A stretch of 32,000 bases of DNA from Candidatus Thorarchaeota archaeon. Its GTDB lineage: Archaea; Asgardarchaeota; Heimdallarchaeia; Hodarchaeales; Hodarchaeaceae. Every line of letters starts with the position of its first letter. Positions within the stretch are counted from its first letter, which is position 1. The notes under the pieces are model-generated. The model saw only the letters and a program-made list of their open reading frames with translations, searched no databases and had not been told where the DNA came from. Of this stretch, positions 5,922 through 23,313 are shown one piece after another. The position numbers were made by a program, and so were the translations under genes. The stretch is from positions 30,001 to 62,000 of the forward strand of contig JBHLRO010000012.1 in the NCBI GenBank assembly GCA_048882505.1, given 5' to 3'.

Positions 5922-6945
5922 ACTTAATTTGTGAACTAGGGTTCCAATTACTCGATCCTATCTTTTTAACCCTTCGCATTCCTAAAATAAAGAGCGATGC
6001 AAAATCAATGGTGCAAAATGCTAGAAAGGTTGGATATTGGATCAGCAAACTTTTTGGATCTCACATTATCCTCTGAGGGAAATGGTCGATGCAAAAAATT
6101 CTTAGAAACCTCTTATCCTGGAAATCCAGCCTCTGTAATCGTTTAACAGGAGTTTAGGGGAATTTATCCCTCCTCTCCAGAGAAAATAAACTAATTCTGT
6201 CATGATATACGCGTTATTTCGATTCGTTGACCGATCTGATCAGTTCAGAATAGAAAAAAGGAAGAAACGAATACTGGTTCAAGGAGTCTTTTTTGAAGCA
6301 TATGGTTTTACATCTTCTTCCTTGGATTTGAGACTAAAGATTGATCTTCTTTCTATATTATATTTTGGGGCCTCGTAATGAAGTAGGAAGAAGATGGATT
6401 CTCTCATGACCAATTTTACTAATATCGCCCATAATCAGTTTGATTTTGCTCTTTTTGCATTTAATGGTATATCCAATTGTTTACAACCTAAACCCATAAT
6501 ATTAATAAAATTGAAGGTGACCTTTTGTTTGATTTAGTTTTTTTCCCCCTCATGGTCATTTTCGCTTTTGTGTATATTGATTGAACTTGAACCAGTCATT
6601 AACTGGATATAATTCTAATATTGTCGAGCGATAATGTTTTCCAATAATGCCACTTTGGGGAGGAACAGCAAAACAAGTTTATTTTCGTGAGGGTAGCGAG
6701 AAGAAAATTTATTCTCCTTTGAATGATGTCTCGTTGAGGATTTTCGTCACCTTCAAATTTCGGGGATTTTTATGAGAATCAGATTTGGTTTTTAGGAACA
6801 GGCCCCAGTAGCATAGGGTCTTAAAATAGGGCTTACAAAACTGATATTGATAAAATTCGACCGCAACCCACCTAACTAGAACCAACCAGGAATGATGAGC
6901 TCAGCAAAGAATAAGCATGGGAATTGTTCGATCGTTGGAATTTAG
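5922..6945. promoter_or_regulatory. Candidate replication origin / extended regulatory region upstream of cdc6
   Basis: The largest non-coding gap in the window, directly 5' of orc1/cdc6. It has an ORB-like TCCAGAGAAAATAAA (6176-6190), a palindrome CTGGAAATCCAG (6118-6129) and AT-rich tracts around 6490-6545. Confidence 0.45.
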
Positions 6946-6975
6946 GTGTGGATCACGATACCGAGGCAGCTAGCC

Positions 6976-8184
6976 ATGGAAAACACTAGACATGGGCTTT
7001 ATCAATTTTTAGGCAAAAAGGAAGGAATTTTAAAGGACGAACAGGTTTTTGAGGCGAATTATATACCAGATAGGCTGATTCACAGAGATGTTGAACTACA
7101 AAATTTGGCTACTCACTTCTCATCCATTCTTTACAAGGAAAAGCACAACTTTGCAAAGCATGCGATCATTGAAGGTCCGGTAGGTGTAGGGAAGACTGTT
7201 GCGGCCCAAAATATAGGATTGGTTATTGAAACCTTTTCGAGAGAGGAGAAGGCCCAAAAGGTGACCAGTATTCGATTTTTCCATTTAAACTGCCGGAGAT
7301 TGAAGTCCTGGTATCTGCTCCTAACCTCACTTCTTAGACATCTTGTTCCCGCCTTTCCCATTCGAGGATTTAGTACTTCAGAACTAATATCCTATTTGAG
7401 TACGATTTTGGAAGAGAAAAAAATTGGAATGTTGCTTTGTTTGGATGAGGTAGATTATGTTTTAGGGAAACCCTATGGCCTGGATGTCCTATATTCTCTA
7501 ATTCGTGGTCACGAAAACAGCCAGAATCCCCAAATTTCAATGATTATCATTACCCGCAATCCTAATTTCTTGTCGATCCTAGATCCTGCCCTTCGATCGT
7601 CCTTGTCCCATTCTATGATTCGGTTTGGACCGTATACAATCAATCAGATGTATGATATTCTAAAAGCACGCGCAAAAATTGGTTTTCATCCAGGTACTAT
7701 TGGGAGGGATGTTTTATATCAAATAGCATCAATGGCCGTAACAGAAGATACAAGATACGCTATCGAACTCCTTTGGAGATCAGCTAAAATTGCAGAACAA
7801 GAACATTCAAGACATATCATTCCAGATCATGTTATGAGGGCTGAGAATAAGGTATATTCCTCTGATCCCAGAAACTATAACGATCTTTCGGGTCAGCAAA
7901 AACTGGTTTTATCAGCTTTGAACAGCCTGCTGGCCGGAAACAGTCCTGGGTACGTTACGACGCGGGATCTATGGAAAAAATATGAAGATCTGTGTATTGA
8001 GAAGAGAATCAAACCCCGTAAACAGACCCAGTTTTGGCATTATCTTAAAGATCTCTGTAATCGGGGGATAATAACCTTTGAAGTCCAAAATAGACATCTA
8101 GATGGAAAATCCGTGGGGAGGACGGCACGGATCGGTCTTGGATCATCTGCCACTAGGGATTTCCAGCGTCTTTTGATTCCGTAA
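6976..8184 (+). CDS. cdc6: Orc1/Cdc6 family replication initiator (AAA+ plus winged helix)
   Basis: YIPDRLIHRDVE, Walker A GPVGVGKT, Walker B LCLDEVD, RYAIELLWRS and a C-terminal winged helix. ATG at 6976 is preferred over GTG at 6946. Confidence 0.93.
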   Translation: MENTRHGLYQFLGKKEGILKDEQVFEANYIPDRLIHRDVELQNLATHFSSILYKEKHNFAKHAIIEGPVGVGKTVAAQNIGLVIETFSREEKAQKVTSIRFFHLNCRRLKSWYLLLTSLLRHLVPAFPIRGFSTSELISYLSTILEEKKIGMLLCLDEVDYVLGKPYGLDVLYSLIRGHENSQNPQISMIIITRNPNFLSILDPALRSSLSHSMIRFGPYTINQMYDILKARAKIGFHPGTIGRDVLYQIASMAVTEDTRYAIELLWRSAKIAEQEHSRHIIPDHVMRAENKVYSSDPRNYNDLSGQQKLVLSALNSLLAGNSPGYVTTRDLWKKYEDLCIEKRIKPRKQTQFWHYLKDLCNRGIITFEVQNRHLDGKSVGRTARIGLGSSATRDFQRLLIP

Positions 8185-8187
8185 TAG

Positions 8188-8204
8188 CGCCCCTTTAAAA
8201 GGGC
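8188..8204. terminator. Imperfect palindrome at the convergent cdc6 / glycosyltransferase junction
   Basis: CGCCCCTTTAAAAGGGC; overlaps the stop codon of the minus-strand gene. Terminator function is inferred from position only. Confidence 0.35.
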
Positions 8205-9475
8205 TCTGGCTGCAACTGAGACGATTTTGATTTATTTTTTAGTTGTTGAGGAAAAAAGACGATTCGGTTCGATAGAATGAACGCATATAGGATCATAGGG
8301 AGAAACTGGGCGGCAATGCCCGTTATTACCAATAGCGATAATAGACTTGTGATAATCATTCGTTTATGGACGTCATCAATGAGGAAGGCAACGAGTAAAA
8401 TACCGAATAATCCGACTAATGTAAAAACCCAGGCAATGTCGAGCAGCCCAAAAAATAAAACAAACTCTGCAAGAACCGTACCACCAAAAGATCCATCCAG
8501 GGTCCGTTCTGGCGTATTATAAAACAGAACTGTTGAATTTAGGACTTCAATAGGCCCGAACAGAACAAAAAACAAGCTTGTCAGTAAAAACATTTCGGTA
8601 AGGAGCTTTAATCCATTCGTAAAATCAAAGTCCCTAAGATAATTTACTAGAAGAGCTACAACAAATATCCCTGTAAAATATTTTGTCAGCATACTCAAAG
8701 TCCAAAATAATACCGTATAATTGGATTTGCTCTGGTGTTGGAAATAGCAGCCTGCTAAAAAAAGCATTTGGGTTAAACAAACGTTATTCCAAATGACGGG
8801 AATAAAAAGAACCAGGGTTAGCAAGAGAGCTTCTTTTCCTCTTATTTCTAGAGTTTTCTGAATGATTCTGAAAGATATCGCAAGGAAGATCAGATTGGCC
8901 AGTACGATCCCCTGAACATTAAAATCGGGAATAAAATCAGGAATAACTCCTCCAAAGATGAGACTAGCTATTGTGTGGAAACTGCCCAGAAGGAATGTAT
9001 ATAGAACTAGATCTACTGGGAGATATGCATATGTTCCTAAACGAAATACTCCTGGATTATTTGGCTCAGCATGACGCACCGCAGGAACTACGTAAGGGTT
9101 CTGCCCTCCCCAAAGAAGCTGTGTGGCATCAATGATGCTTAAAGTTATATCCCCTCCAAAGAAACCTTGACTGAAAAGTATAAGAAAAACAACTGCAACC
9201 CCAAGAATATAGTATAAAATCCCTTTGGAAAAGTGAAGGGTCTTATCATAGAGCGCAAAAAGAAGGCCAACCACTATTACAATGTTGTAAGCGAAAACCC
9301 CAGTGTATTCGGATATAGGATAGTGAGTTCCGATTTGAAAAAAATCGCCATAGATAAACGCAACGATTGCGAAAACCAAGACTGGGAGTGTAATTAAGAG
9401 CCCCGTTATAATTTCCTTTTTGTACGGTTCTAGCTTATTCTGAATTTTTCTTAGTGATTGAGTCATTGGTCTCAA
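8195..9475 (-). CDS. Polytopic GT-C fold glycosyltransferase (GT87 / PIG-M-like), putative
   Basis: About 10 TM segments; the first large loop has GDITLSIIDATQLLWGGQNPY...YAYLP (D...G-NPY...Y-Y-P pattern of GT87-like enzymes), with a later TKYF motif. The start may be ATG at 9466. Confidence 0.65.
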   Translation of the reverse strand: MRPMTQSLRKIQNKLEPYKKEIITGLLITLPVLVFAIVAFIYGDFFQIGTHYPISEYTGVFAYNIVIVVGLLFALYDKTLHFSKGILYYILGVAVVFLILFSQGFFGGDITLSIIDATQLLWGGQNPYVVPAVRHAEPNNPGVFRLGTYAYLPVDLVLYTFLLGSFHTIASLIFGGVIPDFIPDFNVQGIVLANLIFLAISFRIIQKTLEIRGKEALLLTLVLFIPVIWNNVCLTQMLFLAGCYFQHQSKSNYTVLFWTLSMLTKYFTGIFVVALLVNYLRDFDFTNGLKLLTEMFLLTSLFFVLFGPIEVLNSTVLFYNTPERTLDGSFGGTVLAEFVLFFGLLDIAWVFTLVGLFGILLVAFLIDDVHKRMIITSLLSLLVITGIAAQFLPMILYAFILSNRIVFFPQQLKNKSKSSQLQPEPF

Positions 9476-9619
9476 ATATTGGGTGTTATAGGTTACTGCG
9501 GTTAGGGTATAATGGCCGTAAAAATTCTAACGCTTGATTTATTGGATAAAAATTCTAGATTTTTGCGAATATGGGCATAGGCTTTCATAAGCTGCAATCT
9601 TAATAAGAATTTACGCCCC

Positions 9620-9659
9620 CCGAAAATAGAAATAAAAAAAAAGAGGAAAGAAGAGATAT
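9620..9659 (-). terminator. Oligo-U / pyrimidine-rich archaeal terminator after the surface protein gene
   Basis: The minus strand reads AATATCTCTTCTTTCCTCTTTTTTTTATTTCTATTTTC immediately after the stop codon. Confidence 0.55.
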
Positions 9660-12026
9660 TTAGCGTCTTCTACGAACAATGGCTGGTATTAGGATCAATG
9701 ATCCAAAAACCACGAGTATTTCAAAACCTGGAGAGATACCCGCAGTTGTAGTGGTTGTACTTGGGGTATAGTCGAGTTGATCGAAGTCAAGCGATAAACC
9801 ATAGGATAGACCTGCTGTATCAAAGACACCTGAAATTAGCCAGAAATATTCCGCAGAGGCGTCAAAATCCACAGTCGCTTCACTGAACAAATAGTTCTCT
9901 GTATCATTGTCTGCGGCAGAGACACCTAATGTAATCCCTGCTTTTGCGCCCGCGTGCGTTGTGTTTTTGATCCAGTCCAAACCAAACGTAAAGGTAGAGA
10001 GATCGAAGTCATCACCTTCATCTTGAAGCTGGACTTGGGTTAAAACGAATTCTATGAAGCTTGGGCTGGTTAAAACATCGGAGACGGCGTCTACAACTGC
10101 TTCAACGAACATCATGGATCCGCCCACGACTTCCCAGTCTGGGGTACGTACGGGCAGAGGAATCGCTGACCTTAGCTGATCTAATGGAATTCCAAAGAGA
10201 TTCGGTACAACTTGCGCACCCAGGCCTGCCATTTTATTTGACCCAAAGAGGGTATCCAGGAGTCCCATTGATCGGTAGGAGGTGAATTTAGTGCCAGCAA
10301 GTTCTTGCATTCCAAAAACTATCGCATAATCAGTAAAGATATCAAAGGTTCCACCAGGATTGATCAAGTAGGGTTTCAAAACAGTGCGGGTGAGAGTCTG
10401 GCCTTGCTCGTAATTGTAATACTGTTCTGTGACTTCAACATATGTCACAAATCCGCTCCAGGTTGGAGCAGGGAGGGCAGCCATTTGTTGTTCTATGCTC
10501 CACGGTATGTCGTGACGCCAGTAGTAATCCCAATCTGCTTGTTTATACACCGAGGCTGTTACCGCTCCAGGTTCTAGAAGTTCTGGGACCAAATGGGTAG
10601 TGTTCTCTGATCTTCTTCCTTTATGGAGATCAGTACGATAGAACCAAGTGCTGTTGATGTATGTTTGGGCATCAAACAAGTTAAGGGCAAAGTCAGATTG
10701 ACCCCATTCACCAGTTTCACCACCTAGCGGCCCGTAATAATTCTCTATTGGAGCTTGGGCACCAGATCCAGCTGGAACGCCGCCACCACTGAAGAATCCA
10801 AGTCTATCAGAGAGGAATCGCGCCAAATCGAGCATGCTTCCATCGACATGATAGTATAATCCATCCATCGAGTCAACATGCCAATCCAACAATTTTTCGC
10901 CATCAAGTGCATTAACGGCGCTTTCAATTGAAGTGAGCAGGTCATTGACCAATTGCTCTTGGGTATCATTCACTAAGTCTACTGTGATGTCAAAGAAGAC
11001 ATCCATATTGTATTGGCCCCCATCATTGAGCGCCAGCGGAATATTTGCCGGACTAGGATAGCCTGGTTCCAAATCGAATACGACATAAACCCGTTCATTT
11101 GAATCGAAGCTACCGCTGTGATCCGCATCACTCTTGAAGTCAACGGAAAAACTCGTCAGGATACCAGCATTATCCCAAACACCAGAGACGGAGATATTTT
11201 CCCATTGAAATCCAGAGGTTCCATTGAAGTGTTTTCCCTCGATGGTCAGTGCATAATTACCAGGATAAGACGAAGTGACCTTCCAACTAGTGTTATCGTC
11301 AGGACCTTTCTCACCGCCTTGAGGCAAGACATCCATCCAGTTGGCACTATTGCTCCAAAATGAGTGCGCATCTGCTAGATCATCTAAGACAAAAATGGCT
11401 GGTGTTATAGCTGGAAAACCATCTTTGTATCCAAACAAATGGGCCATATCATTGAGATCGGTAAAGTAGGAAAAGTTCGTCGGGCTACGCACGACCGGCA
11501 ACGGTGGGGTTGCTGAACCGCCAGGAATGGTAAAACTTGTAGGTATAAGATCTAACGGTACCCCTTGAGGAGCAGTTGTTGCGTCTAATTGCCATGCAAC
11601 AGTAATACCTGACCCTAATATGAGGGCAGCCTGCCAATCCAGGAGGCGTTGTCCGCTTGAATCTGTTTGGTCATTGATGATCTTTACGAACAAATCTGAA
11701 CCTTCCATCGTACCATCTATTTTGAATGGAGGTACTCCTTCTCCTTCACCAGAGATGAATCCAACATTCATATATTGGTTCAACGGAGTAACGGCAGTTG
11801 TCAGGTTATATTTGAGATTTGTATTTACCATGCCTTGGGGAAGTGTAGTTCCAGGACCTTGGGTCCATACGGAATCTATACCTAGATCCAGATCCATTGT
11901 GTACGTGCCAGGGAGAGGCCCCCCAGCAAAGGGATCTCCATCCTGAGCCAAGAGGGGCACACCAAGCCCTCCAAGAAGGAGCAATCCAATGGAGACAAGA
12001 CCTAAGATATAAAAGTGTTTTCTCAT
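9660..12026 (-). CDS. Secreted cell-surface (S-layer-like) glycoprotein with PGF-CTERM-type sorting signal
   Basis: Signal peptide MRKHFYILGLVSIGLLLLGGLGVPLLA; acidic and Cys-free, with about 10 N-x-S/T sequons. It ends STTTTTAGISPGF-EILVVFGSLILIPAIV-RRRR (Thr linker, PGF, TM helix, basic tail). Confidence 0.85.
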   Translation of the reverse strand: MRKHFYILGLVSIGLLLLGGLGVPLLAQDGDPFAGGPLPGTYTMDLDLGIDSVWTQGPGTTLPQGMVNTNLKYNLTTAVTPLNQYMNVGFISGEGEGVPPFKIDGTMEGSDLFVKIINDQTDSSGQRLLDWQAALILGSGITVAWQLDATTAPQGVPLDLIPTSFTIPGGSATPPLPVVRSPTNFSYFTDLNDMAHLFGYKDGFPAITPAIFVLDDLADAHSFWSNSANWMDVLPQGGEKGPDDNTSWKVTSSYPGNYALTIEGKHFNGTSGFQWENISVSGVWDNAGILTSFSVDFKSDADHSGSFDSNERVYVVFDLEPGYPSPANIPLALNDGGQYNMDVFFDITVDLVNDTQEQLVNDLLTSIESAVNALDGEKLLDWHVDSMDGLYYHVDGSMLDLARFLSDRLGFFSGGGVPAGSGAQAPIENYYGPLGGETGEWGQSDFALNLFDAQTYINSTWFYRTDLHKGRRSENTTHLVPELLEPGAVTASVYKQADWDYYWRHDIPWSIEQQMAALPAPTWSGFVTYVEVTEQYYNYEQGQTLTRTVLKPYLINPGGTFDIFTDYAIVFGMQELAGTKFTSYRSMGLLDTLFGSNKMAGLGAQVVPNLFGIPLDQLRSAIPLPVRTPDWEVVGGSMMFVEAVVDAVSDVLTSPSFIEFVLTQVQLQDEGDDFDLSTFTFGLDWIKNTTHAGAKAGITLGVSAADNDTENYLFSEATVDFDASAEYFWLISGVFDTAGLSYGLSLDFDQLDYTPSTTTTTAGISPGFEILVVFGSLILIPAIVRRRR

Positions 12027-12265: not shown

Positions 12266-14749
12266 ATGATACATGTCTTGACAGTCAAGATCAACAGAGA
12301 CAAAAAGGAATTATCATTAAGTGTCCGAGACCTGACATTATATGGTGGATTGCCCAAATCCAGAACGGGGATTTTCTTCAAGAATGCGGAAGCAGGTCAA
12401 GAAATCCATTCGCAAATTCAAGAGAAGAAACAAAAAGAAAACGCTGCCTATCAGCAAGAATTTTTTGTGAAACACTCATTGAGTATCAACGGGTGGAAAA
12501 TTACAATCCGAGGCCGTATAGATCTCATATTGAAAACCCCTCAAGAGACTAAAATCGAAGAAATAAAAACAATCTATACAAAACGATTTGAAGATTCCCG
12601 CGAAGATCCTCAAATTTACTCATATAAGTTGCAGCTTCTGTTTTATGCCTGGATTCTCAGTAAAACTGATCCGAACCTTTCTGATCCAGTTTTGAGATTA
12701 ATAATAGTGAATCGTTACGATAATCACCAGTATGATATTGATGTTCCCTTTAGGGATGTCACCAACGACATCCATCAACGAGTACTTGATGTAATTGCCA
12801 AAGAGGAGGAGAATTATAATCAATATGAAAGAAAGGTAGATTCGCTTCGGAATTTACAGTTTCCTTTTCCCTATCGGCAGTATCAAGGAGATATTATAGA
12901 TAAGCTAGAATATGTATTAGAAGAGGGATTGAACCTTATTATTGAGGCCCCAAGTGGCCTTGGAAAAACCGTTGTTTCTCTATACACTCTTCTCCCGAAA
13001 ACAATCATTGAAAACACAAAACTCTTCTTTCTAACAGCAAAAACAACTCAAAGACATATTGTCGAACACACTCTTAGAATGTTTGGAAAACAGGGAGTCG
13101 ACTTCCTGGGGATCGTTTTACGCGCAAAGGAGAAGATGTGTACCAATGAATTCTATTTTTGTCACGAAGACTTTTGTCCTTTTCTCAAAGCCCATATGTA
13201 CAACAATCCCGAGATTTATAAGGAGAAGATTATAAAACAACGTGGGGTTATTACCCCTGAAATAATGGAAGATCTTGCCCGAAAAACTCAGGGATTTTGT
13301 CCTTTTGAATTGGCTTTGGACGTTTCCTTGGACGCTGATGTAATTATTGGCGATTACAATTATGTTTTTCATCCTCGGGTTGTTTTACAACGTTTCTTTG
13401 GGGAAGGAGCGCCTAGAAATATGAAATATTTCCTAATCATTGATGAGGCGCATAATTTGGTTGGGAGGAGTACTTCCTACTACTCTCATAGCTTGTTGCA
13501 GCGCGAAATTGTATCCTTCAAACGAGATTGTACGCAGTTAAAACGTAAGTTTAAGGGAATTCCGTTACCTACGGCCATAGTACCCGAATTAGAAAAAATT
13601 TTTCGGGATTTACAGGTCCTAGTATCCTCCCATCCCATGAATATAACAACTCATGTTATTAAGGGCTCCGATTTACCGCTTCGAACACTAAAAGCCATAA
13701 TTATTCAATATGAAGATGATATAACCCATTATATTCGGTTTTTGGTCGAAAACGGGCATCATTGGCCGGAAGATCCGATCCTTCAATTCTATTACCACCT
13801 TCGCACTTTTGTCGAAACGTCTATTAGCGTTCCCCTCTATCCAAAAGAGTTCTCAATTTTGTTCAATTCTAATGAGGGAGAACTTAAAATCTTATGCAAA
13901 GACGCTTCCTTATTTCTTGGACAACAATTTCAAAAATTCAATTCCGTTATCGCAATTTCTGCCACAATTTCACCTTTTCACTTTTATCGAGATTTGCTTG
14001 GATTACCAGTCGAACGAACGATCCATGAGAGATATCCATCTCCCTTCCCATCTGAAAGAAGAAAAATATTGGTGATAACCGACGTAGATACCCGATATGC
14101 TAATCGACACCTTTCATACCATTCAATTGCCGATTTTCTCAAACGTGCTACCCTTATAAAGCCAGGCAGATACTTTGTTTTTTTCCCTTCCTTCGAATAT
14201 GCAAAAAAAGTTCTCAATCACTATTCCCCAGGAAAGGAACAGCTGATACTACAACAAAACTCGTATATGACTGAAGAAGAACGATTTCAGTTTATTAATA
14301 CTCTAGGAAAGGCCCCACAAGTCTTAGCTGTCGGAGTTACCTCGGGGATTTTTGCAGAGGGAATTGACTTGCCAGGAATTTTGGATGGTATATTTGTAGT
14401 CGGCCCTAGCCTTCCTCCTGTATCCGTTGAGCGTGAGTTAATAAGAAGTTACTACGATGATAAATATAATGACGGTTTTACCTATGCATACCAATTTCCT
14501 GGTCTTACGCGCACCTTCCAAGCAGCGGGTCGCCTAATTCGCTCCGCGAATGATTATGGAATTATTGTGTTTATAGGTCATCGTTTTGGAACACCTGCCT
14601 ATTTTGCCCATTTTCCTTCTTATTACTATCAAACTCACCCAAGGGAGCTAGTTACCACCGATCCCATTGGGGAGATTAAAGCGTTCTGGAAGTTATGGGA
14701 AAAGAAGAAGGATCAATCTATCGAAATAAAAGACTCTAATGTTGAATAG
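12266..14749 (+). CDS. Rad3/XPD/DinG-family Fe-S helicase with N-terminal PD-(D/E)XK nuclease domain
   Basis: N-terminal GRIDLI...IEEIKT...QLLFYA; Walker A EAPSGLGKT; Cys cluster CTNEFYFCHEDFC...FCPF; Walker B IDEAHN; FAEGID and QAAGRLIR. Confidence 0.9.
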   Translation: MIHVLTVKINRDKKELSLSVRDLTLYGGLPKSRTGIFFKNAEAGQEIHSQIQEKKQKENAAYQQEFFVKHSLSINGWKITIRGRIDLILKTPQETKIEEIKTIYTKRFEDSREDPQIYSYKLQLLFYAWILSKTDPNLSDPVLRLIIVNRYDNHQYDIDVPFRDVTNDIHQRVLDVIAKEEENYNQYERKVDSLRNLQFPFPYRQYQGDIIDKLEYVLEEGLNLIIEAPSGLGKTVVSLYTLLPKTIIENTKLFFLTAKTTQRHIVEHTLRMFGKQGVDFLGIVLRAKEKMCTNEFYFCHEDFCPFLKAHMYNNPEIYKEKIIKQRGVITPEIMEDLARKTQGFCPFELALDVSLDADVIIGDYNYVFHPRVVLQRFFGEGAPRNMKYFLIIDEAHNLVGRSTSYYSHSLLQREIVSFKRDCTQLKRKFKGIPLPTAIVPELEKIFRDLQVLVSSHPMNITTHVIKGSDLPLRTLKAIIIQYEDDITHYIRFLVENGHHWPEDPILQFYYHLRTFVETSISVPLYPKEFSILFNSNEGELKILCKDASLFLGQQFQKFNSVIAISATISPFHFYRDLLGLPVERTIHERYPSPFPSERRKILVITDVDTRYANRHLSYHSIADFLKRATLIKPGRYFVFFPSFEYAKKVLNHYSPGKEQLILQQNSYMTEEERFQFINTLGKAPQVLAVGVTSGIFAEGIDLPGILDGIFVVGPSLPPVSVERELIRSYYDDKYNDGFTYAYQFPGLTRTFQAAGRLIRSANDYGIIVFIGHRFGTPAYFAHFPSYYYQTHPRELVTTDPIGEIKAFWKLWEKKKDQSIEIKDSNVE

Positions 14750-15833
14750 CAAAAAATCTAGTTTCCACATAAAGAAGGTTCGGAAGATGCTTTCCGCAGA
14801 AGATAAGGTTTTATATTCTAGGCAGATTATTCTACCCGATTTCGGGGAGGAAGGACAGGTTAAACTAAAAAAAGCAAGGGTGCTGGTTGTTGGATTAGGC
14901 GGACTTGGAACGTTTTCAAGCCTCTTGTTGGCGGAACTGGGAATTGGATACCTAAGGTTGGTAGATCAGGACATCATTGAAGTAACAAATCTTCATAGAC
15001 AGCCACTTTACACTCACTCAGATATTGATCGGGCGAAAGTCGAGGTGGCTGCTGAGAGACTGAAAAGTATCCATCCCTCTATGGTGGTCGACTCGCTTGC
15101 CACCCATATTAATGAGGGTAATGCTGACGATATCCTCCAGAATATCGATGTCGTAATTGATGGATTGGATAATTTTGAAACACGACGGATTCTCAATCAG
15201 GTTTGTCTCAAAAAGGGAATTCCCTTTATATTTTGCGGAGTAAGTGCTCGATCGGGAAATTTATCCACATTTAACTTAAAAAAAGACTCCCCGTGCTTAT
15301 CCTGCATATATCATGGAGTTGATGATGCGGATATCGAGAGCTGTGACATAACTGGAATTCACCCAGCACTCCTACCGATCATAACAGGATTGCAGGTTTA
15401 TGAAGCGGTAGAAATCCTCCTTGGCAATAAATCAAATCTAAATGGTTCTCTTCTGTTTGTCGATCTTCCACAAATGACGTTTGACCATATTTCAATTCGC
15501 AAAAATCCTACATGTCCTGTTTGCTCACATCCCGAGCGTCATCTCCCCGTAAGTTCAGATATTAATTATCGAATGCTAGATTTATGTGGAGGGGACAGCT
15601 TTATGATCGTTCCAAATATTGGACGAAATTCCCTGGATATTCCCAACTTGAGCTCTAAAATCGAAAAGGTCTATAAATTAAAATTGAAAGGTAAATTATC
15701 AATTACCTTTTTTTATAGTGAAAAAATTCTAATTACGCTTTTTAAAGGTGGAAATGCCCTAATTAGAGGAATGAAAGAACCTAGTAAAGTAATGAGCATA
15801 TGGGATCAGATACGCCAACAGTTTATCGAGTAA
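14739..15833 (+). CDS. ThiF/MoeB/E1-like adenylyltransferase with extra C-terminal domain
   Basis: YSRQI, VVGLGGLG, TNLHRQ and DGLDNF motifs; Zn sites CLSC and CPVC; active-site loop ESCDITG; C-terminal LCGG...LFKGGNALIRG domain. Alternative ATG at 14787. Confidence 0.9.
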   Translation: MLNSKKSSFHIKKVRKMLSAEDKVLYSRQIILPDFGEEGQVKLKKARVLVVGLGGLGTFSSLLLAELGIGYLRLVDQDIIEVTNLHRQPLYTHSDIDRAKVEVAAERLKSIHPSMVVDSLATHINEGNADDILQNIDVVIDGLDNFETRRILNQVCLKKGIPFIFCGVSARSGNLSTFNLKKDSPCLSCIYHGVDDADIESCDITGIHPALLPIITGLQVYEAVEILLGNKSNLNGSLLFVDLPQMTFDHISIRKNPTCPVCSHPERHLPVSSDINYRMLDLCGGDSFMIVPNIGRNSLDIPNLSSKIEKVYKLKLKGKLSITFFYSEKILITLFKGGNALIRGMKEPSKVMSIWDQIRQQFIE

Positions 15834-19143: not shown

Positions 19144-22100
19144 GTGAAAAAAATGTCAGAAGTCAAAAAAACGTATTCTATGTCCAAAGATGAAATCAAA
19201 TTATTCTCGACTCTTCAAAAATATGGTTCGCAATCAAGGCAAGAATTAATGCTAGGTTCAGAACTCCAAGCTGAGAAAGCGGAAAATGCGCTAAATCGTC
19301 TCCTTGAGATTGGTTTTGTTCAGCAAGATGAGGAAATGCAGCTTATATCGCCCGCAATTCCATTTAATAAAATAACGGAATTATTAGATTCAAGTTTGAA
19401 CAAGATAATGTCTGTTGGTAGGGACCAAACAGAAACAATCCAGCTTTATCGGAAAAAGGTAGAGGGAAATATTCAGGAATATCGAAGTAACCTGGAATCC
19501 AAACTAGATACGTACCAAAATATTTCAGGATCATTGGTATCTGAACTTCAGGATAGTCTAGGTGAGTGGGAAAACCAACAAATTGATCAGACAAACCTGC
19601 TATTTGAAGAGGTCGAATCCACACTTCAGGACAAGTTATCACTTAATAAATCGATGGTTCAGCAAGAAGTAGCTCAAAAAGTTGCTTCATTAGAAAAAAA
19701 TTGGACGAGTGCATTAGATGAGCTCCAACGAGTCCAATCTACGGGAGTAAGGATCTTCAATGAAGCAATGGGCCATTATGATCAAGACTTATCAGAAGCA
19801 ATTCAACTTGCAAGTGAAAAAATTTCAGATCTCCATGCTCAACTTTCGGAAATCACTGATACCCTAGAATCAGTCTTTTCATCTCAGGTCCAAGAGTTTT
19901 TTTCTTCAGCTGACGTAATGGCAAAAGATTTCAAGAATAACATAAATTCAGGGCTACAAGAGTCATGGAAAAGGGAAGAGGATTTTATAGGTGGTATCCG
20001 ACAACAAGTTCAGGTTTCTCTGGTTAAGGATGTGACCAATGAACTTCAGAAAGTGGTGAATACTCTTGGCAAAGACCTGGATGCCGATATTGACAGGATA
20101 TTGAAAAATATCCATGATAAGACTGAGGAAATAATTAAGGATCAGAATAAACACCTAGAAGCCCAATTTCAATCTTTTAAAGAGACCGCGAAGGAATTGT
20201 TACAGGAACAGAAGGCTCCATTAAGTGTTTTAAAAAAGGAAGTTACAGAAATCTCTAGTGGTCAGAAAATTGATAGATCCATGACAACTTTCCTTCAGCA
20301 GCTCGCTGCACAGCTTACTGCAGAATCAACCTCCCTTGAGGGTAATTACCGCCAAATCCAAAAATCTGCAATGGAAACGTTGGAGGAAATTAGGCAAAAA
20401 ACCAAGAAAAACCTCCTTGACCAGAATTCCGAGTTCGAAAACCTTATTGGCATTATTACTGAAGAATTCGAGAAAACCGTCACAAATAAAGAACGAGATG
20501 TCGTTACATCACAACAAATCGCGCAATCTTTGAATCAATTTCTAGAAAACCTATTAGTCTCCATTCCAATGCGGGCTACGCATTTAAAGTCATCAGCTAG
20601 GGAGGCCCTTGAAGATATCCCTACAGAACTTAGGGAAAGTCTCCAACGGTCAACTGTTGAAACAGTTAATAGCCTTCATTTGTCTCTTACTGAAACGCAA
20701 CAGAGGGTTGAAAACACCTTTAAGGAGAATCAAGAAGAAAGCCGACGGGAATTTGATAAACTCCTCGCATCATCTGAGCAGCTTTCAACAACAGTATCAA
20801 ATCTTAGAAACTCCTATGGTGAAACCATTGAAAATAGATTTGCACAGCGAGCTAAAGTAATGAATACCGAATTGGAGGCGATTTCAAGAAACTTCCAGCA
20901 AGTCCTACACGGATTTGAGGCGGGAATCGGAGATATGAAAGGGAGGTTATCTGCAGAAGGGGAGCTTGTGGGTCTTGAAACTTCCCTTCAAACCGCCATA
21001 AACCAGATAAAGACTGAGATTAATCAATCATATTCCCAAACAGTGTCAGATTCCAGAGAATATCTTGACCAGGTTAATTCAAGCCTTCAATCATCTCTCG
21101 AAGAAACCTTAAGTGTCATTAAAGACGGTATATCGAATCTCCAATCGGATTTCAAGAAAAACAGTGAATTATTCCTTAACCACCTTAGAGAAAATAACGA
21201 AACACAACAAGGAAACCTGATCAAGGAGTTAGATGCAACAGGATCGAACATATCTGGCCAGATCACAGAATTCAAAGAAAGTTATCAAAAAATCATTGAA
21301 GAAAACCAAAAAAGCGTTGAGGATTACCTTGTGGAAGGTCGTAGGGGCACTGAGGAAGTTATTTCGTTACACAAGGCCAATATTGTCAAGTACCAAGAAA
21401 AAGGCCCAGCAGATATTCTATCATTTATTAATCAAATAGAAACGGAAGTTGTGACCCAAAACAAAAATCTTTCCGATGCTTTGGAAGACCTCATAAGCGC
21501 CTACTCTGGCATTTCTGAAACAACATACGGGGAAATATCTGGAACTTTTACTCAATTTCAAGAAAGCGGAGACAAGCTTTCATCTGCGACAGATGACTCT
21601 GTCCAACTAATTTCCAGTGCTATCGGTAAGGCAAACGATTCTATTGATCAATACTTCTCTGATACGATAACGGAGCTAGAAAATCAGATAAGCGTCGCAA
21701 CGGGACTTATCACTTCTGAAATATCAAGTTCGGCAGGGACGATTCGCAATGAAATCGATAAATCTCAACAGGACTATGAAATAATCATTAAACGGTTGAA
21801 TTCAGAGTTAAGTGCTAGCCTGTCTCGTCAAGAAACTGAATTTATGACAAAAATTCCAGAATTGGAAAATGACCTTTCCTTGATCTTTAACAAAGCTCTA
21901 GAAGAACGAGAATTATCCAATTCCAATTTGGAGAAAGAAATAGCCGAGGATTTGGAAGAATTAAAACAAAATTGGCTCAAACAAACTGGAAATGCCGAAA
22001 CCAAGATCCAAGACTTGATTTCAGGCGTGACAGAGGCCGTTGATGCTAACACAGAAAATCTCGAGAAACATATCCAATCCAATATAGAGCAGATAGCTAA

Positions 22101-23313
22101 ACAGATCGCAACGCTTTACAGCTTTTCCCCTAAGGAGGACGTATTTGAACTCGCCTCGATAAACGATCAGGTGAAGGCGGCCAACAAGCGCTTAAAAACT
22201 GGTATCACAGAGGGATTAAAGCCTCATATCGAAACTTTCGACCAGAAATTCCCCGCGATATTATCAGAACACGATGCCATTCGTAATCAGATAGAAGAGG
22301 ATCTTGATACCTTTGTGGAGGATTTCACAGACACCTTATCTAGTGTACAGTCGTCAGTTAGCAATCAAATTCATACCTTTATGAAAGACGAACGAGATAG
22401 AATAGATTTCGCAGATGAAAAAGAGGAGCTCAATACAATCAGTAGGAATTTTGTTGAAGCCAGTAAAGGTCAAAGCGAAGCTTTCTCGGAAGACTTGAAC
22501 GGATCGATAGATCTCTCCACTGCGTCAGTGTCCAAGTCGAAATCAGATACCTTGGACTCCATGTCTGATATCTCCGAAATCATAAACAGTAACAATAGCA
22601 GCCTCCGGGAGGAAGTGAAACTCATTAGAGATAGTGCGTCAGGAAAACTGAAGGATTTTGGCCAGGAAAAGACTGCCGAAATGAGAAAAAAGCTTGATTC
22701 GTTCAAGAGCGGTTTTGAGAAGTCTGTAAGATCTATGATTGATGGATCTCATCAAGTAGTTCGTGAAGAAATCGAAAATATGGATTCCCGACTAATTGAA
22801 CTGACAAGTAAATCCGAACAGATATTCAAAGAGATCACTGATGAGACCATTGAATTTAAAGACGTACTTCGGACAATTTCTCTGGAGACCGCAAGAGCAA
22901 AGCCGCTTGGTTCAATCCGTTTTGTTCATATTCCCAATGAAGCCGCTAATCTGGACTATTTATCACATCTGATTGAATCTACCGCCAAGCAGTTGACAAT
23001 CTTTGTTTCGGATCCTCCACGATTCCTTTCCCTTCCGGTTTTAAAGAAAGTTCCACCAGAGAAAAGGATATGGATCTATACAAACTATGATTTCTCAAAG
23101 AAGGGGAAAAAATGGTTAAATGAACTTGGAAAACAGGTAAATGTAAATCTACGCAAAGCCAAGACAAATAGGAAGATCACAGGATTGATAGGCGTCGTTG
23201 ATTCAAACTTCGTTCTTATCCTTCCCGATACCGTTGGAATCGTATCATCGGATTCTAATTTGGTTGAAAACGTTGAAAACTTGTTAACACTGCTTAAGGG
23301 GGCCCCAATATAG
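19144..23313 (+). CDS. 1389-aa protein: N-terminal TrmB-like winged HTH, ~1190-aa helical coiled coil, C-terminal TrmB effector-binding-like alpha/beta domain
   Basis: The N-terminus (EIKLFSTLQKYGSQSRQEL...ALNRLLEIGFV...PAIPF) fits a TrmB wHTH. The middle is rich in E/Q/S/K/L, nearly devoid of Cys and poor in Pro. The C-terminus (HLIESTAKQLTIF...RIWIYTN...IGVVDSNFVLI) fits the PLD-like fold without an HKD motif. Alternative ATG at 19153. Confidence 0.7.
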   Translation: MKKMSEVKKTYSMSKDEIKLFSTLQKYGSQSRQELMLGSELQAEKAENALNRLLEIGFVQQDEEMQLISPAIPFNKITELLDSSLNKIMSVGRDQTETIQLYRKKVEGNIQEYRSNLESKLDTYQNISGSLVSELQDSLGEWENQQIDQTNLLFEEVESTLQDKLSLNKSMVQQEVAQKVASLEKNWTSALDELQRVQSTGVRIFNEAMGHYDQDLSEAIQLASEKISDLHAQLSEITDTLESVFSSQVQEFFSSADVMAKDFKNNINSGLQESWKREEDFIGGIRQQVQVSLVKDVTNELQKVVNTLGKDLDADIDRILKNIHDKTEEIIKDQNKHLEAQFQSFKETAKELLQEQKAPLSVLKKEVTEISSGQKIDRSMTTFLQQLAAQLTAESTSLEGNYRQIQKSAMETLEEIRQKTKKNLLDQNSEFENLIGIITEEFEKTVTNKERDVVTSQQIAQSLNQFLENLLVSIPMRATHLKSSAREALEDIPTELRESLQRSTVETVNSLHLSLTETQQRVENTFKENQEESRREFDKLLASSEQLSTTVSNLRNSYGETIENRFAQRAKVMNTELEAISRNFQQVLHGFEAGIGDMKGRLSAEGELVGLETSLQTAINQIKTEINQSYSQTVSDSREYLDQVNSSLQSSLEETLSVIKDGISNLQSDFKKNSELFLNHLRENNETQQGNLIKELDATGSNISGQITEFKESYQKIIEENQKSVEDYLVEGRRGTEEVISLHKANIVKYQEKGPADILSFINQIETEVVTQNKNLSDALEDLISAYSGISETTYGEISGTFTQFQESGDKLSSATDDSVQLISSAIGKANDSIDQYFSDTITELENQISVATGLITSEISSSAGTIRNEIDKSQQDYEIIIKRLNSELSASLSRQETEFMTKIPELENDLSLIFNKALEERELSNSNLEKEIAEDLEELKQNWLKQTGNAETKIQDLISGVTEAVDANTENLEKHIQSNIEQIAKQIATLYSFSPKEDVFELASINDQVKAANKRLKTGITEGLKPHIETFDQKFPAILSEHDAIRNQIEEDLDTFVEDFTDTLSSVQSSVSNQIHTFMKDERDRIDFADEKEELNTISRNFVEASKGQSEAFSEDLNGSIDLSTASVSKSKSDTLDSMSDISEIINSNNSSLREEVKLIRDSASGKLKDFGQEKTAEMRKKLDSFKSGFEKSVRSMIDGSHQVVREEIENMDSRLIELTSKSEQIFKEITDETIEFKDVLRTISLETARAKPLGSIRFVHIPNEAANLDYLSHLIESTAKQLTIFVSDPPRFLSLPVLKKVPPEKRIWIYTNYDFSKKGKKWLNELGKQVNVNLRKAKTNRKITGLIGVVDSNFVLILPDTVGIVSSDSNLVENVENLLTLLKGAPI

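Follow-up and report, generated by a model that had tools for sequence, protein, structure and literature searches.

The question raised by this locus is what kind of protein results when the two end domains of a TrmB-type regulator are separated by a helical rod. The gene lies in a window of 32,000 nucleotides, the whole stretch of DNA that was analysed, and all features given here are on the + strand. Open reading frame 19144-23313 comprises 1389 codons and is a real gene of a Hodarchaeales (Asgard) genome. An in-frame GTG at 19144 lies upstream of an ATG at 19153, which is probably the true start because Met4 is invariant across 41 homologues and the database record has 1386 amino acids. 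The rod-protein gene is placed at 19153..23313 (1386 aa), and residue numbers throughout follow the 1389-residue frame. Its dN/dS is ~0.13 (0.10–0.17 against an 87% identical orthologue), and orthologue lengths are held at 1386–1418 aa with indels of 1–3 residues only. The gene is flanked by yggS upstream and AFOR downstream; no functionally linked neighbors were seen at the locus, and no proteomic evidence for the protein was found in the paper supplements searched.

Proteins of the TrmB/TrmBL2 family have a short amphipathic dimerization helix and a total length of ~260–340 aa. The rod protein shares their N-terminal winged helix (wHTH) and non-catalytic PLD-like domain, but it exceeds this length and carries a hendecad helix of ~1,180 residues instead of the short one. 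The preliminary description proposed a TrmB scaffold with two end domains, and this plan held, with the wHTH and the PLD-like domain matched at the N- and C-termini. The TrmB/TrmBL2-type winged helix (aa 9–72, 19168..19359) matches Pfam TrmB (PF01978) at aa 11–65 with E 2e-5 and 24.8 bits, below the cut-off of 25.6 that relatives exceed. A family profile of this domain searched against the PDB gave TrmBL2 (2.3e-4) and then TrmB (4.5e-4) as best matches. The domain is acidic (mean net charge −3.1, n = 41 orthologues), and its recognition helix and wing are degenerate. The TrmB recognition-helix residues S/R-K/T-x-Y-R/D are absent from the orthologue wHTH (n = 41), and none of the 41 orthologues has the wing motif of the family, G-x(2-4)-[RK][YF]. 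A sequence-level test did not find DNA-contacting residues in the recognition helix and wing, other residues standing at the Tyr/Arg positions. The recognition helix of the long members has on average 1.3 K/R versus 2.2 D/E, with the TrmB Tyr replaced by E/K/Q, and the wing motif is retained by 65 of the 88 other long members. The suggestion of a DNA-binding tether acting through the wHTH is weakened by this acidity and by the loss of recognition residues and wing motif in the 41 orthologues, and we infer that the heads are interaction modules, not sequence-specific DNA readers.

The C-terminal PLD-like domain (aa 1256–1389, 22909..23310) is net basic. It was identified only through folding or a broadened profile, and a sequence search with this domain alone gave no match in Pfam, NCBIfam, or the PDB. 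Its AF2 model has a pLDDT of 87.7; the best structural match is TrmB 2f5t (Z 14.7; 121 residues aligned at rmsd 2.2), and the match to the TrmBL2 structure has Z 12.3. No C-terminal domain in the family alignment carries HxKxxxxD, the Asp-equivalent D1353 is the sole invariant catalytic-motif position, and the domain is catalytically dead. It aligns to residues 110–241 of 2f5t only, and the protein stops at the end of the PLD-like subdomain. With no sugar-binding subdomain present, the effector-binding role proposed earlier is unsupported. The same absence bears on whether the protein is a genuine transcription factor in which the spacer has become very long, and which would loop operators and sense ligands through its C-terminal domain. 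A TrmB-type domain at each end is consistent with such a protein, but the altered recognition helix of the long members and the ordinary short TrmB proteins also kept in each genome make it very unlikely. A basic-aromatic motif, F-[TS]-K-K-G-K-K-W (aa 1317–1324, 23092..23115), is present in 41/41 orthologues and 0/88 other long members, and it is thus specific to this Hodarchaeales orthologue group.

The middle region has a hydrophobic period of 3.64–3.67 (power 46.9 versus a shuffle maximum of 11.7) with little 3.5 signal, and its autocorrelation peaks at 11 and 22. The hendecad spacing reported earlier from repeats now located at aa 1053–1085 was confirmed by this periodicity, and the ~1,180 residues form an a-d-e-h hendecad helix in 11-residue register. 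The rod has an N-terminal arm (aa 74–659, 19363..21120) and a C-terminal arm (aa 660–1250, 21121..22893) that pairs antiparallel with it. The rod contains 8 prolines (0.7%) and, like the wHTH, is strongly acidic (net −85; −63 to −92). The AF2 model of the 1198-aa rod has a pLDDT of 64 and a pTM of 0.31, and Foldseek with this model gave no match at E<=0.001. The protein has no Walker A and no TM helix (max KD19 1.6), and its ends are other folds; the claims that it is not an SMC and lacks a TM helix stand, and an extended rod with a structural role is supported. A lipid-coating helix of the apolipoprotein or perilipin type would share the 11/3 amphipathic period, and Pfam Apolipoprotein PF01442 is matched above its cut-off of 90 (100.9 bits, E 9.5e-29), a match that arises from the shared 11/22 periodicity. 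However, Pro-punctuated, basic-flanked 22-mers are absent, the two positions that border the hydrophobic face are not both rich in K/R (22% at i, 8% at k), and the rod is strongly acidic, so this role is highly improbable.

The rod has a mirror symmetry centred on residue 660, residue i pairing with ~1318−i. Close relatives carry mirrored insertions (+88/+18...+18/+88, +44...+44, and +22...+22), and other close relatives have a single midpoint block of +172 or +114. The sum i+j ~1318 was predicted from these insertions before the covariation analysis, in which 1318 topped ~176 antidiagonal bands (z 5.9); the signal is in antidiagonal sums only, single pairs among the 43 sequences being noise. 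A second family gave a band at 1077 (z 4.7) versus a predicted 1068, and family-wide coupling between the first and last helices (89 effective sequences) peaked at 1321, 1324, 1317, and 1328. A complex prediction of the N arm (62–290) with the C arm (1025–1262) scored 0.05 and carries no weight either way. Sequence patterns indicate that the two halves of the rod pair antiparallel with each other. Mirror pairing therefore places a wHTH beside a PLD domain at every rod end, and the covariation shows that the hydrophobic face serves helix–helix packing, which argues against lipid coating. An irregular segment at aa 327–373 (20122..20262; AF2 pLDDT <50) has its mirror partner at aa 952–1000 (21997–22143; index sums 1325–1327), and the two may form a flexible elbow. 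Proline pairs hinted at an apex close to residue 610, a position rejected because indels and covariation point to 660. The dimer helix of TrmBL2 also pairs antiparallel. Axis offsets from the N and C domains place the mirror axis at ~residue 96 of TrmBL2, within its single dimer helix (PMC4877046).

The mirror centre (aa 651–670, 21094..21153) is near-invariant around I659-K660-E661-G662-F663 and has no indels, and the helical phase shifts by only 1 degree across it. Covariation and indels fit a two-chain antiparallel pair and a one-chain hairpin alike. We moderately favor a two-chain antiparallel dimer, a bipolar rod of ~175 nm, because the helix is unbroken through the centre. The same mirror pairing within one chain would give an SMC-arm-like hairpin of ~87 nm with wHTH and PLD domain at one end, a tentative but substantial alternative. 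Equally tentative is its corollary that conserved aa 651–670 form an apex interaction site and that dimerization proceeds through the heads. The AF2 monomer does fold back at 654–659, but the pLDDT of this turn is <50 and a lone chain cannot meet the contacts otherwise. The conserved V658...G662-F663-S664, with G662 kept in 39/41 orthologues within a cap-like pattern, may represent a helix cap followed by a tight turn, but the phase is continuous, indels are absent at the rod protein's centre, and neither a Gly/Pro loop nor any turn residue occurs there in clade relatives. A basic loop exactly at the centre is found in ~20 paralogues: the strongest basic/Gly/Pro window lies <=20 residues from the predicted centre in ~20/93 relatives versus 5.4 expected. 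These paralogues look like hairpins, and fold-back forms probably exist in the family on this ground. The reach of ~180 nm claimed earlier therefore stands if the paired halves belong to two chains (~175–180 nm) and fails if one chain folds back (~87 nm).

The chances are about even that the protein is a cytoplasmic structural rod on a TrmBL2 scaffold, two-chain and bipolar, with heads as interaction modules and a spacer or scaffold function. Two chains would pair via the elongated TrmBL2-type dimer helix into a rod of lineage-specific fixed length. PLD–PLD or head–head contacts, comparable to the TrmBL2 dimer-to-tetramer step, may join rods into bundles or networks, and the FxKKGKKW patch could attach rod ends to an anionic surface, either membrane or DNA backbone. 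Such rods would serve as spacers or scaffolds of fixed length that order the cell interior, possibly keeping the nucleoid in place. A structural scaffold seems likelier than a wHTH-based DNA tether, because the wHTH is acidic and DNA-reading residues are lost. TrmBL2 binds DNA non-specifically, forms a stiff nucleoprotein filament, and is a tetramer. A DNA-bridging or nucleoid-organizing ruler, with heads binding DNA non-specifically via the wing or a basic PLD patch, is rather unlikely, as is the idea that it bridges distant segments and may cooperate with Smc-ScpAB or oppose it, like TrmBL2 in Thermococcus. Several observations favor such a ruler: TrmBL2, the closest relative, belongs to the nucleoid proteins and stalls Smc-ScpAB (PMC11840125), most other long members keep the wing motif, and DNA is confined and central in Hodarchaeales-affiliated cells (PMC12077186). 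In addition, a ~800-aa paralogue adjoins two scpB genes in 18/18 assessable genomes of the same genus, and it sits between scpA-like and scpB in genomes G000 and G256; in the latter, smc is adjacent too. However, the gene beside scpB is a paralogue, the arrangement is that of a single genus with generally conserved synteny and was not seen in G235 (other family), and the orthologue wHTH has lost both motifs. The chromosome-segregation link proposed earlier is thus kept indirectly through the paralogue's scpA/scpB cluster, and is limited by the confinement of that cluster to one genus.

The C-terminal domain profile matches 288/301 Asgard genomes (~96%), with 1–5 long paralogues of 540–2,084 aa per genome. 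Named matches and long Atlas clusters were all Asgard, the genome search covering Asgard genomes. The tree comes from a FastTree run with two short domains, in which the rows of the short TrmB proteins are poorly aligned. No published description of the rod family was found in the literature searched, including Asgard/ESCRT papers, subscription journals being mostly outside this coverage; neither TrmB nor coiled-coil proteins are mentioned in a review from 2026 (PMC12993045) or in a survey based on structures (PMC12962969). What is new here is mirror pairing about residue 660 in a TrmBL2 relative with a ~1,180-residue rod. A transcription-factor or chromatin scaffold would have been repurposed through >30-fold extension of one helix, with mirrored insertions recording the geometry. 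Asgard cells are reportedly large and of complex shape. Their DNA is confined (PMC12077186), and a soluble rod family whose lengths differ by only a few residues within each lineage offers a concrete candidate for Asgard cell organization. More speculatively, and unlikely in this full form, Asgard archaea may hold unrecognized, near-universal non-enzymatic rods derived from a chromatin protein, comprising ~175 nm antiparallel dimers and hairpins with a membrane-binding basic-aromatic tip.

Among known systems, active PLD nucleases and lipases (Nuc, Zucchini) bear HxKxxxxD, which the rod's PLD-like domain lacks. Apolipoprotein A1/A4/E and other 11/3 helices share the 11/22-residue amphipathic periodicity, but the rod is cytoplasmic, acidic, nearly proline-free, self-pairing, and TrmB-capped. 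The sugar-sensing regulator TrmB (PDB 3qph, 2f5t) agrees with the rod protein in its type of wHTH and in its PLD-like subdomain (Z 14.4–14.7); TrmB/TrmBL1 sensors carry an extra C-terminal sugar-binding subdomain, whereas the rod protein lacks it and has a giant rod added. SMC, MukB, and Rad50 likewise bring N- and C-terminal domains together at one end of a long antiparallel coiled coil, and the rod's mirrored irregular segment recalls their elbow. They differ in their heptad period, hinge or hook domain, and Walker A, in place of which the rod protein has a hendecad period and neither a split ABC ATPase head nor a hinge; the source genome encodes its own Smc-like gene. The NCBIfam TrmBL2 model, whose cut-off is 530 bits, does not match the rod protein and gives a relative 29.9 bits. 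TrmBL2 (TK0471/PF0496; PDB 5bpd, 5box, 5bpi, 5bqt), a Thermococcales chromatin protein, differs in having a pairing helix of a few dozen residues, whereas the rod protein has ~1,180 in hendecad register, an acidic wHTH without DNA-reading residues, and 1–5 long paralogues per genome. Nevertheless, TrmBL2 has the same order of wHTH, amphipathic pairing helix, and single PLD-like domain, likewise without a sugar-binding subdomain, and the rod's mirror axis falls in the TrmBL2 dimer helix.

The TrmB-headed rod protein is encoded by an intact ORF of 1389 codons (window 19144-23313, + strand), which probably starts at ATG 19153 because Met4 is invariant among homologues. Purifying selection acts on all three parts of the gene, with dN/dS values of 0.17 for the head, 0.13 for the rod, and 0.10 for the C domain. 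The full-length orthologues (n = 40) are 1386-1418 aa long and differ by 1-3 residue indels only; those with names all belong to Hodarchaeales/Heimdallarchaeota. A broadened C-domain profile, counted over genomes of the Asgard phylum, matches 288 of 301 genomes and 88 of the 90 high-quality ones, some of the 288 matches being short TrmBs, and every named match to the family is Asgard. Of 15 near-complete genomes inspected one by one, 14 contain long members, usually several in each, and the source genome holds three (1389, 812, and 767 aa). Fetched long members range from 539 to 2084 aa with lineage-specific lengths, and almost all carry a wHTH, a hendecad rod, and a PLD domain. Literature searches found no paper describing the protein or its family. 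It is a real, conserved, Asgard-wide variant of the TrmB scaffold and apparently undescribed.

The N domain is matched by Pfam TrmB, and the PDB ranking for its family profile places TrmBL2 and TrmB on top. Sequence searches of Pfam, NCBIfam, and the PDB with the C domain gave no match. Its AF2 model is confident and shows a PLD-type fold, with TrmB as nearest structural neighbour (Z 14.7, 121 residues at rmsd 2.2), ahead of NucT, FAM83, and TrmBL2. TrmB-type domains at both termini, as claimed in the preliminary description, are therefore borne out by Pfam and profile at one end and by structure at the other. Its hendecad spacing also held: in aa 75-1250 a hydrophobic period of 3.64-3.67 dominates (power 46.9 vs at most 11.7 in shuffles), and the heptad signal is nearly absent. 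The hydrophobic share by position in a phased 41-sequence alignment (a 79%, d 52%, e 50%, h 71%) is that of a typical hendecad core, and the AF2 helix is nearly continuous. A scan of the protein found neither a Walker A motif nor a TM helix, in agreement with the view that it is neither an SMC nor membrane-spanning.

Where close relatives are not equally long, the difference lies in mirrored insertions (+88, +18 ... +18, +88; +44 ... +44, plus a central +4; +22 ... +22; +70 ... +74) or in a single block on the rod midpoint (+172, +114). Insertions of both kinds fit one rule, which predicts that paired residues of the rod protein sum to about 1318. The prediction came before the covariation analysis of 43 orthologues: among roughly 176 antidiagonal bands, the strongest one falls at exactly 1318 (z 5.9), whereas the best parallel band reaches z 2.5; a second family has its band at 1077 (z 4.7) vs 1068 predicted. 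Over the 135 members compared (89 effective), coupling links the helix that follows the wHTH to the one preceding the PLD domain (sums 1321, 1324, 1317, 1328). Low-confidence AF2 segments are likewise mirrored (327-373 with 952-1000), with a turn at 654-659. Together, these data indicate that the two arms of the rod run antiparallel, with residue 660 as the axis, an arrangement that brings the wHTH and PLD domains together at a rod end. The mirrored insertions and antiparallel covariation make compact repeat bundles unlikely for the middle.

Mirror symmetry fits both a two-chain dimer and a one-chain hairpin. In about 20 of 93 members (5.4 expected), the predicted centre coincides exactly with a basic Gly/Pro loop, in many cases one that includes an aromatic residue (GLFGKK-like), and the helical phase jumps there. 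Both the ATPase-operon members and the 767-aa paralogue belong to this class, whose members look like fold-back hairpins. Basic-aromatic Gly-rich loops lie at the exact mirror centre in loci L071, L069, L053, L067, L079, L064, L074, L075, L085, and L093; such loops may resemble a membrane-insertion tip. A tight hairpin of ~87 nm is a tentative reading for the rod protein itself, supported by conserved G662 and the turn in the AF2 monomer. However, its clade shows a phase shift of 1 degree across the centre, no indels at 640-680, and mostly no turn residues there, and mapping via N-profile and C-domain alignments puts the mirror axis near TrmBL2 residue 96, inside the single dimer-forming helix of that protein. 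For these reasons an antiparallel dimer is somewhat favoured, whose length would be 1177 x 0.1485 nm, or ~175 nm; the ~180 nm first estimated would stand for this dimer but not for the hairpin.

The rod gene lies between yggS upstream and a convergent AFOR gene downstream, an arrangement kept within the genus only, and its locus is uninformative about function. Elsewhere in the window (5922-8184), cdc6/orc1 (6946-8184) follows a 1-kb gene-free, AT-richer stretch that has a GC content of 36% and contains several short inverted repeats; the region before it, ~12 kb from the rod gene, is a possible replication origin in which a canonical ORB match was not found. The window also holds a PD-(D/E)XK nuclease and XPD/DinG-type helicase fusion overlapping a ThiF/E1-like gene (12266-15833), a subtilase that carries a GIFT/ABC_transp_aux-like domain and may have a zinc ribbon at its C terminus (29199-31925), and two long minus-strand ORFs of 426 and 788 aa without Pfam match (8195-12026), the latter richer in GC (47%) than the window. 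A periodicity scan of the source genome (G000) revealed a 14,728-codon ORF (C14:6854-51037).

The 812-aa paralogue (G000 C7:73589-76024, L092:5090-7525; also L072) has an scpA-like gene on one side and a tandem pair of scpB genes on the other, and in another genome (G256) smc precedes scpA at the ~800-aa paralogue locus. The ~800-aa paralogue adjoins scpB in 18/18 assessable genomes of this genus and in this genus only. This placement stands out given that in Thermococcus Smc-ScpAB is stalled by TrmBL2 (PMC11840125). Directly upstream of eight unbroken-centre members from several families (L055, L059, L077, L081, L096, L102, L105, L106) is a gene without Pfam match for a Cys-rich protein of ~290 aa with five conserved Cys, of which the source genome has an unlinked copy (C2:208672-209559). 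Five members, most of them with a broken centre (L061, L067, L079, L083, L101), are preceded by a STAND-like ATPase whose tail is TPR/SNAP-like, and a headless hendecad protein usually stands between the two; in the source-genome copy (L094:3496-7396, C1:9495-13395) the third gene, the TrmB-headed rod, is missing. Shorter members of 445-735 aa (L070, L089, L110, L056, L054) have non-hendecad linkers whose insertions still obey the mirror rule, and some extend ~170 residues beyond the PLD domain and have small GTPases and a putatively longin-like gene as neighbours.

The TrmB-type wHTH is present, but its expected DNA binding is doubtful: the recognition helix of long members is acidic and without the TrmB Tyr, and the wing motif occurs in 0/41 of the orthologue group vs 65/88 elsewhere, which argues against a sequence-specific regulator. 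In this group, the mean wHTH charge is -3.1 and the PLD domain is basic (+7.7); its FxKKGKKW motif is invariant and found in no member outside the group. Any binding to anionic surfaces may have shifted to the PLD end. A non-specific DNA bridge, the main functional rival, seems unlikely. The preferred reading, with an even prospect, is a fixed-length bipolar structural rod; its heads would connect rods with one another or with an anionic surface.

The protein descends from TrmB/TrmBL2 and departs from that family in length and DNA-reading features. Of the TrmB end domain first described, the PLD-type fold remains, and the sugar-binding subdomain is absent; a motif check also found HxKxxxxD absent from the C domain. 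These two absences give the layout of TrmBL2, used here for comparison (PMC4877046): in both proteins the C domain is without the sugar-binding subdomain, and the overall layout is the same.
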